48,781 nucleotides of DNA from the NCBI GenBank assembly GCA_040752125.1, contig JBFMFK010000004.1, positions 1 through 48,781 on the forward strand, given 5' to 3'. Positions within the stretch are counted from its first letter, which is position 1, and each line of letters starts with the position of its first letter. The notes under the pieces are model-generated. The model was not told where the DNA came from. It saw only the letters and a program-made list of their open reading frames with translations, and made no database searches. Below, piece by piece: positions 20,249 through 37,932 of the stretch. Source of the DNA: Patescibacteria group bacterium. Lineage in GTDB: Bacteria; Patescibacteriota; Minisyncoccia; UBA9983. The translations under genes were made by a program, and so were the position numbers.

Positions 20249-21229
20249 ATGTCAAATGTTAAAAAATATCACATGATTACTTATGGATGTCAGGCCAACG
20301 TTGCGGACTCAGAAAGAATTGCTAGCCAATTAGAGACGATGAGATATAAAAAAGCCAAAAAGGCGGATGGTGCCGATCTGATTGTGCTCAATGCTTGTTC
20401 GGTGCGGCAATCAGCGATAGACCGCCTTTACGCAAAAGTAAATCAATTTAAAAATAAAAAAATTATTTTAACAGGATGTATTCTTCCAACTGATCGAAAA
20501 AAATTAAAAAATCAAGCAGCTGCAATCTGGCATCCGGATGAATATTTTGATTTAATACCGAATTATTCTCATTTTCCCATTGCTTATATTCCCATTATGA
20601 CTGGATGCAATAATTTCTGCACTTTTTGTGCTGTTCCGTATACTCGCGGCCGAGAACGTTCAAGGCCAGCCAAGGAAATAGTAAAAGAAGTCAGTAATCT
20701 AGTTAAAAAAGATTATAAAGAGATTTGGTTGTTGGGTCAAAATGTAAATTCTTATCCTAATTTTCCTGATTTATTGAGAAAGGTAAATAATATCCCCGGG
20801 GATTTCAAAATCTATTTTATGTCGCCCCATCCGAAAGATTTTTCTGATGATTTGATAAAAGCGATGAAGGAATGCAAAAAAGTTGTGCACTCTCTTAATC
20901 TGCCTCTACAATCAGGCGATAATAAAATCTTAAGAGCAATGAACCGACCATATACAGTCGGATATTACAAAAGATTAGTGAAAAAAATCAGAAAAGCGAT
21001 TCCTGACATTTTTTTGTCCACTGATATTATTGTCGGTTTCCCAGGAGAAACAAAAAAGCAATTCCAGAACACTGTTAAACTCTGCAAAGAATTAAAGTTC
21101 AACAAGGCCTACATCTCTAGATATTCTCCTCGCCGGGGCACTGCGGCCGCAAAATTAAAAAATAATGTTTCGCTAGAAGAAAAAAAACAGCGCTGGAAAA
21201 TATTGAATGATTTAATCAATAATAATTGA
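20249..21229 (+). CDS. miaB: MiaB-like tRNA methylthiotransferase lacking TRAM domain
   Basis: TYGCQAN, NACSVR, TGC, GCNNFCTFC, LLGQNVNSY, DIIVGFPGE; only 326 aa. Confidence 0.88.
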   Translation: MSNVKKYHMITYGCQANVADSERIASQLETMRYKKAKKADGADLIVLNACSVRQSAIDRLYAKVNQFKNKKIILTGCILPTDRKKLKNQAAAIWHPDEYFDLIPNYSHFPIAYIPIMTGCNNFCTFCAVPYTRGRERSRPAKEIVKEVSNLVKKDYKEIWLLGQNVNSYPNFPDLLRKVNNIPGDFKIYFMSPHPKDFSDDLIKAMKECKKVVHSLNLPLQSGDNKILRAMNRPYTVGYYKRLVKKIRKAIPDIFLSTDIIVGFPGETKKQFQNTVKLCKELKFNKAYISRYSPRRGTAAAKLKNNVSLEEKKQRWKILNDLINNN

Positions 21230-21256
21230 GTAAAATAATTGTAATTTTTAGACCGA

Positions 21257-21286
21257 TCAAGTGGAGTCAATTCAAGTGGAGTCAAT
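21257..21286. repeat. Tandem 15-mer (TCAAGTGGAGTCAAT)x2
   Basis: Two exact adjacent copies. Confidence 0.85.
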
Positions 21287-21302
21287 AAAAATTCTATCCT
21301 AA

Positions 21303-21322
21303 ACAAAATAAGCGATCGCTTA
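21303..21322. repeat. Palindromic direct repeat downstream of PaaX/Cas2-like gene
   Basis: ACAAAATAAGCGATCGC (17 nt) identical to 22024-22040; here completes the palindrome TAAGCGATCGCTTA. Confidence 0.85.
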
Positions 21323-21354
21323 AAGTATATAGAATAAAAATTTAATTGAATTCT

Positions 21355-22008
21355 TTAAATTCTTTTTTTAATAAAATCTTTAAAATGATACAGTACTTTT
21401 CCATCATCAATTTCATTAACAATAAAAAGTTTTACAAACGGTTTGATATTGAAAAAATCTTTTAGAAACTCAATTTCCTCTGTGCAATCAAAAGGATATA
21501 TCCAGATGCTTTTTTGACATTGATAAAAGCCGAGATCTTTTAATTTACGCCTTAATGCTTCTCTGAACTTTTTGCATGTTTCCGGTATGTCAAAAATTAC
21601 TAATCTCCATCTATTATCCCATTTTTGAGGTGTTTCTAATTTTAATTCATCAATTACAAATTTTCTTAATTTTTCTTTGCCGTTTTTATTGAATTTGTAT
21701 ATTAAATACCCATTTTCTTCTTTTACAAATTCTAAGGCCCTTTTCTTTTTAAGATAATTGAAACTTTGCCAAAATTGTTGATAATTTTTATAACTTTCTC
21801 GTCTTTGTCGGCTTCGGATTTTCCCAATTTCACTTAAAAGAGCGGGAAATGCCGCGCCAAATGTCAGTATTCCGCCAAGGGCAATGAGTCCTAAAGTGGC
21901 GTGAAGCGCTGTCTTGGCTTTTGGATTCTCCTTGAAGATTCTTACGATATATTTTCTTAAATTTGGTTCTAAACTTGTTTCGAATTTTATTGGTTTATGC
22001 TTAGGCAT
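21355..22008 (-). CDS. PaaX-like protein with Cas2/VapD-like C-terminal domain
   Basis: WDNRWRLVIFDIPE...REALRRKLKDLGFYQCQKSIW; preceded by winged-helix-like segment. Confidence 0.8.
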   Translation of the reverse strand: MPKHKPIKFETSLEPNLRKYIVRIFKENPKAKTALHATLGLIALGGILTFGAAFPALLSEIGKIRSRQRRESYKNYQQFWQSFNYLKKKRALEFVKEENGYLIYKFNKNGKEKLRKFVIDELKLETPQKWDNRWRLVIFDIPETCKKFREALRRKLKDLGFYQCQKSIWIYPFDCTEEIEFLKDFFNIKPFVKLFIVNEIDDGKVLYHFKDFIKKRI

Positions 22009-22023
22009 ATATATCTATTCTAT

Positions 22024-22040
22024 ACAAAATAAGCGATCGC
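22024..22040. repeat. Palindromic direct repeat upstream of PaaX/Cas2-like gene
   Basis: Identical to 21303-21319; lies between minus-strand TTGCGC (22044-22039) and TAGAAT (22022-22017). Confidence 0.85.
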
Positions 22041-22074
22041 GCAAGATATATAAAATACTACCGAGTAAAATAAA

Positions 22075-22098
22075 AAAGGGTAAGAATTCTTACCCTTT
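22075..22098. terminator. 24-bp perfect palindrome, probable bidirectional terminator
   Basis: AAAGGGTAAGAATTCTTACCCTTT flanked by A-run and T-run. Confidence 0.55.
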
Positions 22099-22222: not shown

Positions 22223-23209
22223 ATGTCAAGAACAAAAATTATCATGATTCTTGGCCCTACAGCTAGTGGAAAAAGCGAGTTGGCGGTAAAAATCGCCAAA
22301 AAAATAAATGGCGAAATTGTCTCTGCTGATTCAAGGCAGGTCTATAAAGGACTGAATATTGGAACAGGAAAAGTAAATGGGAAATGGAGAAGAAGAGTTG
22401 CCAAATCCCGTATATGCGGAAAAGAGCAATTGGTCTTTATGTATAAAAATATTCCGCATTATTGTATTGATTATGTTTCGCCGAAGAAAAGATATACTGT
22501 GATTGATTTCAAAAAATGTGCGGAGGGGGCAATTAAAGATATTTTTTCTCGCCGGAAGATTCCGATTATCTGCGGAGGGACAGGATTTTATATCAGTGTC
22601 ATCACTGGTGGAATTGATATTCCGGAGATAAAACCTAATTGGAAATTAAGAAAAAAATTAGAGAAAAAATCTACAGAGGAATTATTCAAGACGCTGAAAA
22701 AATTAGACCCAAAACGGGCGAAAAATATTGACAGATATAATCCGAGAAGATTAATAAGAGCTATAGAAATAGCTGAAGCGATATATGATTTTCGAGGCGG
22801 CGTCGGAGCCCGCTTGCGGGTTAAGACGCGAGAAAATCAAATGCCGCTTGAACAGATAGATTTTCTTGTGCTAGGCATTAAACTTCCGGAAAAAGAATTA
22901 AAAAAGCGCATAGAAAAACGAGTGAAAAAAATGTTTCGTGACGACCTGATCCGCGAAGTAAAAAATTTGCGTAATCCGCCGACTGGCAGAGGTCTTTCTT
23001 GGAAACGACTTTATGAACTTGGTTTTGAATATAAATATCCAGCCATGTTTTTGCAAGGCAAAATAAAAAAGCAGGGGATGATAGAGCGAATGATTTTAGA
23101 AAACTGGCATTATGCCAAACGCCAAATAATCTGGTTCAAAAAATACCAGCCAGAAACAAAATGGATTAAAAATTATAAAGAGATTGAAAGATTATTGTTT
23201 ATAAGATAA
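22223..23209 (+). CDS. miaA: tRNA dimethylallyltransferase
   Basis: GPTASGKS, SADSRQVY, GGTGFY, NPRRLIRAIE, YAKRQ. Confidence 0.96.
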   Translation: MSRTKIIMILGPTASGKSELAVKIAKKINGEIVSADSRQVYKGLNIGTGKVNGKWRRRVAKSRICGKEQLVFMYKNIPHYCIDYVSPKKRYTVIDFKKCAEGAIKDIFSRRKIPIICGGTGFYISVITGGIDIPEIKPNWKLRKKLEKKSTEELFKTLKKLDPKRAKNIDRYNPRRLIRAIEIAEAIYDFRGGVGARLRVKTRENQMPLEQIDFLVLGIKLPEKELKKRIEKRVKKMFRDDLIREVKNLRNPPTGRGLSWKRLYELGFEYKYPAMFLQGKIKKQGMIERMILENWHYAKRQIIWFKKYQPETKWIKNYKEIERLLFIR

Positions 23210-37227: not shown

Positions 37228-37932
37228 ATGCTTCGGAAAGAAAAATTTACAACAAATGAATATTATCATATTTACAATCGAACTCTTTCTAATTCCCCGT
37301 TCTTTAGAGAAAAAAGCAATTGCGAAAGATTAATAAAAGCATTGCTACTTGCAAATTCCACGCAAGCCAGCCAAGCTCTTCAATTTTTAAGGGACAATAA
37401 AAATGCCCCTATTGAAAATGCATTAGAAATTGCAAAAAATGGCAAAAAACTTGTTGACGTTGTTTGCTATGTAATTATGCCTGATCATTACCATTTACTT
37501 CTTAAAGAAAGGCTGGAAGGAGGCATTACTAGTTTTATCCACAGATGCAATATTTCAGTTGCTAAATATATAAACACAAAAATAAACAGGCATGGCCCTT
37601 TTTTTGAAAGTCTTTTTAAATCAAAACACATCACAACAAATGAATACTTACTCCATCTTTCACTCTATATCCACTTAAATCCATTGGATTTTATTTCAGG
37701 AAAACAATGGAGAAGACACAAGATTCAAAACTGGAATAAAATTAGAAATAGACTTATTGCTTATCCTTATTCAAGTCTAAAAAATTTTTTAGAAAAAAAT
37801 TATAACGATAAAATTCTTTCAGGAACAGAAATAATAAAAAAACAATTTAAAAACAAAATGGGATACGAGTCTTTTCTACATGAATGGTCAGAAGAAACTT
37901 TTGATGCAATAAATGAGATAATTATTGATTAA
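37228..37932 (+). mobile_element. REP-associated tyrosine (HUH/Y1, IS200-like) transposase, intact
   Basis: EYYHIYNR, CYVIMPDHYHLLL (HUH), YIHLNP, YPYSS; flanked by identical palindromes. Confidence 0.92.

Follow-up and report, generated by a model that had tools for sequence, protein, structure and literature searches.

A minimal PaaX-type gene bracketed by two copies of its own palindrome in a patescibacterial genome: a probable self-repressing unit with two operators

The stretch of DNA analyzed here, called the window, comprises 48,781 nucleotides of a Patescibacteria group bacterium (GenBank assembly GCA_040752125.1, contig JBFMFK010000004.1) and is contig C16 of a genome of 571,753 bp that consists of 21 contigs, has 36% G+C and is rated 100% complete. 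Between the tRNA-modification genes miaB and miaA, the window carries in antisense a gene for a 217-residue protein of a family that is called mini-PaaX in this work, and one and the same palindrome is present on both sides of this gene. We consider that the gene probably codes for a self-repressing, minimal DNA-binding protein of the PaaX type that is provided with two operators. The three parts of the unit are the following:

21355 to 22008, minus strand: mini-PaaX gene, 217 aa, from the open reading frame (ORF) listing, with a match to PF20803 (PaaX_M)
22014 to 22057: promoter-side private palindrome, core GCGATCGC at 22033-22040, overlapping the candidate -35 and -10; proposed autorepression operator
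21293 to 21336: stop-side private palindrome, core at 21312-21319, 19-62 nt past the stop codon and in direct orientation; proposed second operator

The initial annotation of this DNA had described a 17-mer with a palindromic core flanking the gene. Both copies (21303-21319 and 22024-22040) are exact, and no further match was found in the window with up to 3 mismatches allowed. The 8-mer GCGATCGC occurs in the window solely at 21312-21319 and 22033-22040 (0.16 occurrences were expected from 100 shuffles, only 1 of which reaches 2), and 9 times in the whole genome, compared with 1 occurrence of the reversed control. The match between the two flanks widens to a 44-nt direct repeat (21293-21336 and 22014-22057, 37/44 positions identical), each copy of which is an imperfect palindrome centered on this 8-mer, with an arm complementarity of 71-74%. 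In the orientation of the gene, the promoter-side copy extends from -49 to -6 and the stop-side copy from +19 to +62 past the stop codon. A genome-wide count of the palindrome, which had been suggested as a check, yielded these two flanking copies and no third one, so the gene appears to control only itself. Its flank-match score is 23, while 432 control ORFs from the same genome show a median of 8, a 95th percentile of 11 and a 99th percentile of 15.8.

This layout is a rule of the family. There are seven paralogues in the genome, as found by phmmer on six-frame ORFs and equally with the Pfam model, and all seven possess their own palindrome at up to about 90 nt before the start codon and again 20-60 nt past the stop codon, with flank-match scores of 14-30. 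The cores of these palindromes differ among paralogues (GCGATCGC, ACGATCGT, GCTATCGC, GCGATAGC and CGCATATGC). With an identity of only about 35% among the paralogues, a recent burst can be discarded. Some of them have extra solo sites ahead of other genes, such as ndk and alaS, which suits regulators. The other ORFs of the genome with high flank matches are four RAYT-like genes and ssb. The latter (C1:4471-4935, outside the window) has the top flank match in the genome, 43, with a long repeat of AGTCAG-like units plus a palindrome on both sides.

Cognate flanking pairs, which the initial annotation had proposed to look for in homologues, are also common beyond this genome. A search of the relatives' contigs with the single protein gave 4 loci; an alignment-based metagenome scan and a class-wide genome search were used instead. 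When the best match of each related genome is taken, 19 of the 27 evaluable loci, the window's own included, score at least 14, and the same is true for 15 of 19 other paralogues of two relatives. The relatives' loci were pooled with 80 metagenome loci and thinned to less than 75% protein identity, leaving 95 loci; this thinning was needed because near-duplicate metagenome loci inflated the null of mismatched pairs. Scores of at least 14 are reached by 73 of these 95 non-redundant relatives, compared with 1.3% of 470 mismatched upstream/downstream pairs, and scores of at least 16 by 63 of them, compared with none of the 470.

The anatomy of the sites was obtained from 70 bracketed loci aligned on the dyad. 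The dyad center is situated at a median of 46 nt ahead of the start codon and 41.5 nt past the stop codon. The G+C fraction is 0.8-0.9 at positions ±3-4, about 0.1-0.2 at ±1, 0.0-0.2 around ±10, and 0.4-0.5 in the arms (±12-20). Therefore, the site is tripartite and can be divided into an arm, an AT-rich spacer, a GC-N-AT-N-GC core, a second spacer and a second arm. In the orthologues, the right arm is a -10-like hexamer (TAGAAT, TACAAT or TAGGAT), and a TTG-containing -35-like element, located 16-18 nt upstream of the right arm, is formed by the left spacer and the start of the core. Thus, the operator is built into the promoter. For the gene of the window, the candidate promoter consists of TTGCGC (22044-22039) and TAGAAT (22022-22017) on the minus strand, separated by a 16-nt spacer and followed by 8 nt up to the ATG.

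In related loci, 30 bp separate the arm CATTGT from the arm ACAATG, the geometry being the same as in the E. coli PaaX site. According to a published review, the E. coli site has two 6-bp inverted arms with 27 bp between them, PaaX hinders RNA polymerase and represses its own promoter, and the middle domain of the protein is a dimerization motif (PMC9493321). Judged from the aligned sequences, the geometry of the mini-PaaX sites fits a putative double-stranded operator of the PaaX type that overlaps the promoter.

Selection was assessed on 10 aligned related loci, in which 52% of the third codon positions are invariant. The numbers of invariant columns outside the gene are as follows:

Upstream palindrome: 35/63
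Downstream palindrome: 32/51
Adjacent intergenic stretches: 5/78, 14/78, 10/74 and 6/48

These proportions indicate that both copies of the palindrome are under purifying selection. Spacers and core are invariant, and the variable positions are found in the arms. In addition, the copies keep separate differences, such as TACAAT in the upstream arm and GACAAT in the downstream arm, the latter in 8 of the 10 loci. Differences that are conserved separately on each side are to be expected from old, separately selected sites and not from fresh duplications; therefore, the sites are regarded as such. The downstream palindrome was also considered as an operator of the next gene, and this was rejected as a general reason since bracketing is equally common with convergent neighbors: 41 of 54 loci with a co-directional next gene have the downstream site, as do 22 of 31 loci in which the next gene is convergent. 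In the window, the next gene downstream of the 217-aa gene is convergent. With respect to orientation, 54 of 85 family members are on the strand of their downstream neighbor, and 405 of 509 pairs of adjacent genes in the genome are on the same strand.

The 217-aa protein matches PaaX_M (PF20803) with an E-value of 5.7e-22 and 78 bits, well above the cut-off of 24. The match to PaaX TIGR02277 is weak (E 2.8e-6, 27.1 bits for a cut-off of 264.55), that to cas2 TIGR01573 is below the cut-off (E 3.4e-4, 20.8 versus 24.5 bits), and the PADLOC Cas2 models reach only E-values of 7e-5 to 0.015. Neither Pfam PaaX_N nor the C-terminal PaaX domain is matched at E-values up to 1, and the protein ends about 17 residues past the Cas2-like domain. 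The missing match to the C-terminal domain agrees with the earlier suggestion that this is not a catabolic regulator in the sense of PaaX. Searches of the protein with Y1 PF01797 (HUH) and against PHROGs gave no match. The labels of family members in databases vary and include Cas2 (often), PadR and PaaX.

In the AlphaFold2 (AF2) model of the protein, the Cas2-like domain is predicted with a local confidence score (pLDDT) of about 90 across residues 130-200, and it is preceded by helices and a three-stranded wing of moderate confidence (pLDDT 60-75). The top Foldseek matches are the Cas2 chains 3exc, 2ivy and 5zyf, with a probability of 1.0 but E-values of 0.016-0.018; PaaX 8a39 is aligned across 145 columns (E 0.058). 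A search of PDB sequences with the Cas2-like part as a single sequence gave only chance-level matches, and the family profile told more. Its N-terminal half weakly matches winged helices of the MarR, PadR and AspA types (E 0.03-0.7), and its C-terminal half weakly matches Cas2 3exc, with the Asp of the FDIP motif falling on the Asp of the Cas2 YDV motif. The initial annotation had already placed the FDI Asp on the Cas2 Asp, and this alignment is now seen in the profile match. This residue, Asp140, is invariant in the two alignments made (23/23 and 25/25 sequences), as are W130, D131, W134, R149, Q165, S167, P172 and E178, and a Q-x-S-V-F-like strand motif is also present in the family. An Asp at this position is catalytic in Cas2 nucleases. 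The absence of cas1 noted before for the window extends to the whole genome, as no Cas1 (PF01867) was detected by a search that was positive in control genomes (CRISPR arrays and paa genes were not searched for).

The neighbors of the gene in the window are tRNA-modification and housekeeping genes. The elements that border or accompany the unit at the miaB-miaA junction are listed below:

20249 to 21229, plus strand: MiaB-type methylthiotransferase, short form without TRAM (UPF0004 and Radical_SAM); left border of the insertion
21228 to 21238, plus strand: 11-nt exact direct repeat, copy 1, overlapping the miaB stop codon
21257 to 21286, plus strand: exact tandem duplication of a 15-nt unit (Tandem Repeats Finder score 60), just outside the stop-side palindrome; unexplained
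22063 to 22073, plus strand: 11-nt exact direct repeat, copy 2; possible target duplication (weak evidence)
22075 to 22098: bidirectional terminator-like hairpin with a 10-bp stem and T-runs on both strands (-8.6 kcal/mol, z -3.3)
22223 to 23209, plus strand: MiaA, tRNA isopentenyltransferase (IPPT); right border of the insertion

As described before, the cassette parts two co-oriented genes, miaB and miaA both being on the plus strand and the cassette gene on the minus strand. The miaA loci of 29 relatives were examined by means of longest-ORF calls. miaB is located directly upstream of miaA in 13 of them; both genes overlap in 7, are fused in one reading frame in 2 (G029 and G031) and are separated by 136-846 nt in the other 4. 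Empty junctions, the search for which had been recommended, are therefore available in relatives (9 overlapping or fused). None of the 13 relatives has a PaaX-like gene between miaB and miaA, and one relative has such a gene just after miaA. A search for sequencing runs that contain the locus, as a source of expression data or of alleles without the cassette, gave none. The C-terminus of miaB in the window coincides with the exact end of the short forms of G007 and G013. From this matching end and the overlapping or fused pairs of the relatives, it follows that the approximately 990 nt separating miaB from miaA are added DNA. They comprise the 15-nt tandem duplication, a site, the gene, a site, the bidirectional terminator and the miaA promoter region. 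The MiaB-type genes of this genome, G007 and G013 are devoid of the C-terminal TRAM domain that other relatives retain.

In three other lineages, the miaB-miaA junction is occupied by unrelated small antisense genes (G020, G032 and G016), coding for two predicted membrane proteins and one response-regulator-like ORF. Together with the fusions, these insertions indicate that the junction has been split repeatedly, so an insertion at this place needs no special machinery. The hairpin at 22075-22098 would act as an insulator between the antisense cassette and miaA, and the miaB transcript could also end there; terminator-like sites amount to 4, versus 0.6 expected. The longest direct repeats found outside the palindromes of the seven cassettes measure 11, 9, 8, 7, 6, 6 and 5 nt, and those of the null 5-10 nt. 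Only the miaB-miaA cassette exceeds the null (11 versus a maximum of 10), so target duplication is not treated as a rule, and a consistent target-site duplication was rejected (beyond the null in 1 of 7 cassettes). The 13-mer core of the 15-nt tandem unit has its only exact occurrence in the genome at 21257-21286. Short tandem repeats are present beside several cassettes, about 25 in some 7 kb versus 1.1 per kb genome-wide, a baseline that is not restricted to intergenic DNA.

The subfamily of the gene (42-77% identical) is represented by about 40 loci, which are distributed over some 17 neighborhoods, as defined via the homologues, in this genome, of the nearest neighbor genes. The largest group is formed by 12 metagenome loci. 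Their cassette is flanked by homologues of two genes that are 48 nt apart in this genome (C2:10923-10970), the flanking gene order being otherwise collinear with it. This empty site shows neither a palindrome nor a scar. In G011, the subfamily gene is one slot off from the position of the C10-type paralogue here (C10:8748-11199), in a stretch that is otherwise collinear. Orthologues with an in-frame stop codon exist in G023 (TAG) and G035 (TGA), and the G023 copy retains both palindromes (score 20); these could be decaying genes.

The subfamily is present in 12 of the 401 genomes of the class that were sampled and in 4 of the 18 of its own taxonomic family, this genome included. A tree was built from 13 members of the subfamily and 2 outgroups, with the group to be tested named beforehand. 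One of the sequences from this taxonomic family pairs with a member from another family (support 95/94), and the approximately unbiased (AU) test rejects a tree in which the four sequences from this family are monophyletic (p 0.013). Synteny across genera is found in three other paralogue lineages, namely the dnaE/rnhB-adjacent lineage (4 genomes), the rplU-adjacent lineage (2) and the C10 type (2). The initial annotation had proposed a mobile unit and regarded syntenic fixation of homologues as evidence to the contrary. Insertion, changing neighborhoods, patchiness and tree conflict favor this proposal for the subfamily of the window gene, which is not fixed, and the syntenic stability of the other subfamilies disfavors it.

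From these observations, we infer the following mode of action. A dimer composed of winged helix and Cas2-like domain would recognize its private tripartite palindrome, in which AT-rich spacers join a GC-rich core of 8 bp to two arms that are about 27-30 bp from each other. In the promoter copy, the core would lie between -35 and -10 and the right arm would be the -10 itself; therefore, binding would shut off the transcription of the gene. The stop-side copy, 20-60 nt past the stop codon, would be a second operator, which probably cooperates with the first one by looping the approximately 720 bp that hold the gene, or else insulates the unit from neighboring transcription. The unit of gene and putative operators is accessory DNA, which was inserted here in antisense, together with a bidirectional terminator, into an otherwise overlapping miaB-miaA pair, and which is found elsewhere in other genomes that harbor the same subfamily.

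Different results weigh against this interpretation. The TTGCGC element matches the -35 consensus at only 3 of 6 positions and a consensus promoter scan gave no call at the proposed promoter, so that the promoter indicated by the initial annotation is confirmed in its geometry, with both hexamers as described, but not in its strength. The E-values of Foldseek are weak (about 0.009-0.1, none at or below 0.001), as are the matches of the family profile to structures (E 0.03-0.8). Between paired copies, the non-palindromic positions are kept in direct orientation in 49 cases and inverted in 20, with 4 ties. A purely symmetric operator does not predict such an excess, although the polarity of the promoter may account for it. 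Control of nothing other than itself would be strange in a useful gene, and a selfish unit could explain it equally well. Moreover, the invariant Cas2-type Asp has no role in a plain repressor, and moves among some 17 neighborhoods need a mechanism that the repressor model does not supply.

Among the alternatives, all of which we consider unlikely to different degrees, the one that survives best is that of a self-mobilizing cassette, in which a Cas2-like nuclease or recombinase would nick or exchange strands at the GC-rich cores and the unit would be excised and reinserted in a lox-like or RAYT/REP-like manner. The unit was inserted into a conserved operon, but the same junction harbors unrelated small genes in three other lineages. 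The subfamily occupies many neighborhoods, of which several have a collinear stretch without a cassette in this genome; its distribution is patchy (12/401 genomes) and its tree disagrees with taxonomy (AU p 0.013), while other subfamilies hold the same slot across genera. An 11-nt direct repeat surrounds the miaB-miaA cassette, yet a flanking duplication beyond the null was found in this cassette only out of seven. The paired sites are mostly direct, as could be expected from such a unit, but their copies differ by old, separately conserved changes and not by fresh duplication. The Asp at the Cas2 position is invariant, although no Tyr or Ser recombinase, HUH domain or Cas1 was recognized. The only sites of the gene are its own pair; however, there are no near-identical copies inside a genome, the paralogues being as divergent as stated above. 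Finally, one slot is occupied by a cassette in G037 and by a solo palindrome in this genome, but the empty site at C2:10923-10970 is devoid of a palindrome. In that slot (C17:39582-39627), the solo palindrome of this genome is of the C7 type and lies between a conserved gene and ndk, and the whole cassette of G037 has a different palindrome; the solo copy is possibly either an operator that was retained or what is left of a cassette that was lost.

A more specific form of this alternative, which we judge quite doubtful, is a new kind of minimal autonomous mobile element, in which an enzyme of the Cas2 fold, guided by its winged helix and with its Asp at the dyad center, would nick or exchange strands at the GC-rich core of the two lox-like sites around its own gene, so as to permit excision and reinsertion. 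If true, the Cas2 fold would have a role in DNA transactions outside CRISPR, with a possible evolutionary link to the repeat duplication that takes place in spacer integration.

It is very improbable that the protein is mainly a membrane-anchored DNA tether, with the N-terminal hydrophobic helix anchoring the dimer, the paired sites fastening the locus to the envelope or organizing the nucleoid, and regulation as a side effect. The Kyte-Doolittle maximum over 19 residues is 1.94 (residues 40-58), and 2.42 in the C10 paralogue, but five of the seven paralogues remain below the usual transmembrane threshold of 1.6, which only these two surpass. The AF2 model is unreliable at the hydrophobic helix (residues 29-49, pLDDT 41-50), and this segment may correspond to helix 1 of the winged helix, as in PaaX_N. 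The scattering of seven private site pairs across a small genome and the lack of an apparent regulon of the 217-aa gene would suit a tether, whereas the overlap with the promoter points to regulation.

Slightly less credible than the tether is the proposal that the palindromes act as nucleic-acid structures, such as hairpin terminators, insulators or mRNA-stabilizing stem-loops. The position right after the stop codon is suitable for a terminator, but a separate, proper terminator hairpin is present at 22075-22098, and a terminator does not require that the upstream and downstream copies of each gene be matched in sequence. With RNA parameters, some sites of paralogues can reach folding energies of about -12 to -18 kcal/mol, and A-runs and T-runs frame several sites. 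However, the two sites of the window fold weakly as single-stranded DNA, with -4.6 to -6.4 kcal/mol and z-scores of -1.3 to -1.65 (14-22 of 200 shuffles are as good). The would-be loops, namely spacers and core, are the most conserved parts and the variation is found in the arms; in addition, most of the upstream copy would escape transcription, given its overlap with the -10. For comparison, the REP hairpins beside the RAYT-like gene of the window fold at -11 and -8.8 kcal/mol, with z-scores of about -4. The weak folding and the invariant spacers and core of the mini-PaaX sites fit recognition as a duplex, and not the single-strand hairpin logic of RAYT and IS200 elements.

The initial annotation had compared the cassette with two RAYT cassettes in the window. 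A RAYT-like gene is indeed present, but the Y1_Tnp model, which has 8 matches in the genome, has a single one in the window (37444-37674). The analogy holds for the bracketed layout and fails in the weak folding, the lack of dispersed copies and the lack of a consistent target duplication. Two slots of this genome that contain a RAYT-like gene with REP hairpins contain a mini-PaaX cassette in relatives: the slot 37228-37932 of the window in G001, and C15:4669-5355 in G037 and in two metagenome loci. Both kinds of cassettes appear to use the same permissive gaps. At C15:41852-41977 of this genome there are two REP hairpins and a lone armless ATGCGATCGCAT palindrome, and G004 has an orthologue there, after a ddl-like gene. 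That the cassette is a passenger of the RAYT/REP system, with one of the 8 Y1-transposase-like genes acting in trans to move it, can be practically dismissed although this genome has RAYT genes flanked by REP hairpins and two slots are shared, since the palindromes of the cassettes are unrelated to REP sequences and fold poorly as single strands, the outer borders of the cassettes here are devoid of REP-type hairpins, and each cassette has a different site while one RAYT acts on one REP family.

Returning to the self-repressing protein with two operators, this tiny genome spends 7 genes on the family, and relatives carry up to 13. No paper on the mini-PaaX family was found in the literature, supplementary files being outside the search. 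If our interpretation is right, these would be the simplest PaaX-type repressors, each of them a closed pair of protein and site that can be read from the sequence. They would also be a source of dozens of natural repressor-operator pairs, all distinct from one another, with which the participation of a Cas2-like domain in DNA recognition could be studied. The insertion between miaB and miaA and the patchy, incongruent distribution indicate that a regulator and its two operators can be transferred together, which raises the question of what moves them. The findings are also a caution against counting such genes as CRISPR remnants in genomes of candidate phyla.

Among known proteins, the closest comparison is with PaaX, a GntR-type, phenylacetyl-CoA-responsive repressor of the paa genes in E. 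coli and Pseudomonas (PDB 8a39, 3l09, 3kfw). The 217-aa protein shares with it the Cas2-like PaaX_M domain, which is preceded by a putative N-terminal winged helix in the predicted structure. The short inverted arms of its proposed operator are about 27-30 bp apart, a spacing comparable to that of the E. coli site, and autorepression, which is known for PaaX, is suggested here by the overlap of the site with -35 and -10. In contrast to PaaX, the protein is devoid of the C-terminal helical ligand domain (217 aa versus 305 in the 8a39 chain), its operator has an added GC-rich core, a second operator is found past the stop codon and each paralogue has a private site. Other differences are the N-terminal hydrophobic helix, the maintenance of the Cas2-type Asp and the relocation of gene and sites as an accessory unit.

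With respect to Cas2 (3exc, 2ivy, 5zyf), the model suggests the same ferredoxin-like fold, with the Asp at the end of strand 1 on the Asp of YDV/YDI; the Q-x-S-V-F-like strand motif is a further likeness, and the family is often labeled Cas2. Unlike Cas2, the domain is fused to a putative winged helix, the genome is devoid of Cas1 (the search did not extend to CRISPR arrays), and two private palindromic repeats surround the whole gene instead of forming an array. RAYT cassettes are similar in that a small gene is bracketed by palindromic repeats in intergenic DNA, and both kinds coexist in this genome, with some slots shared. However, the cassette gene has no Y1/HUH domain and, in contrast to REP sequences, its sites are AT-rich, tripartite, of the duplex type, weakly folding and without dispersed copies, with one private site per gene.

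In phage lambda, the cI repressor gene is located between OR and OL, cooperative looping tightens its autoregulation, and the module is exchangeable. By analogy, the mini-PaaX unit would also be a repressor gene situated between two operator regions and exchangeable between genomes, in which looping may take place. The unit differs from that of lambda in that it consists of one gene of about 650 bp with single instead of triple operators, a different fold and a chromosomal, non-phage context.

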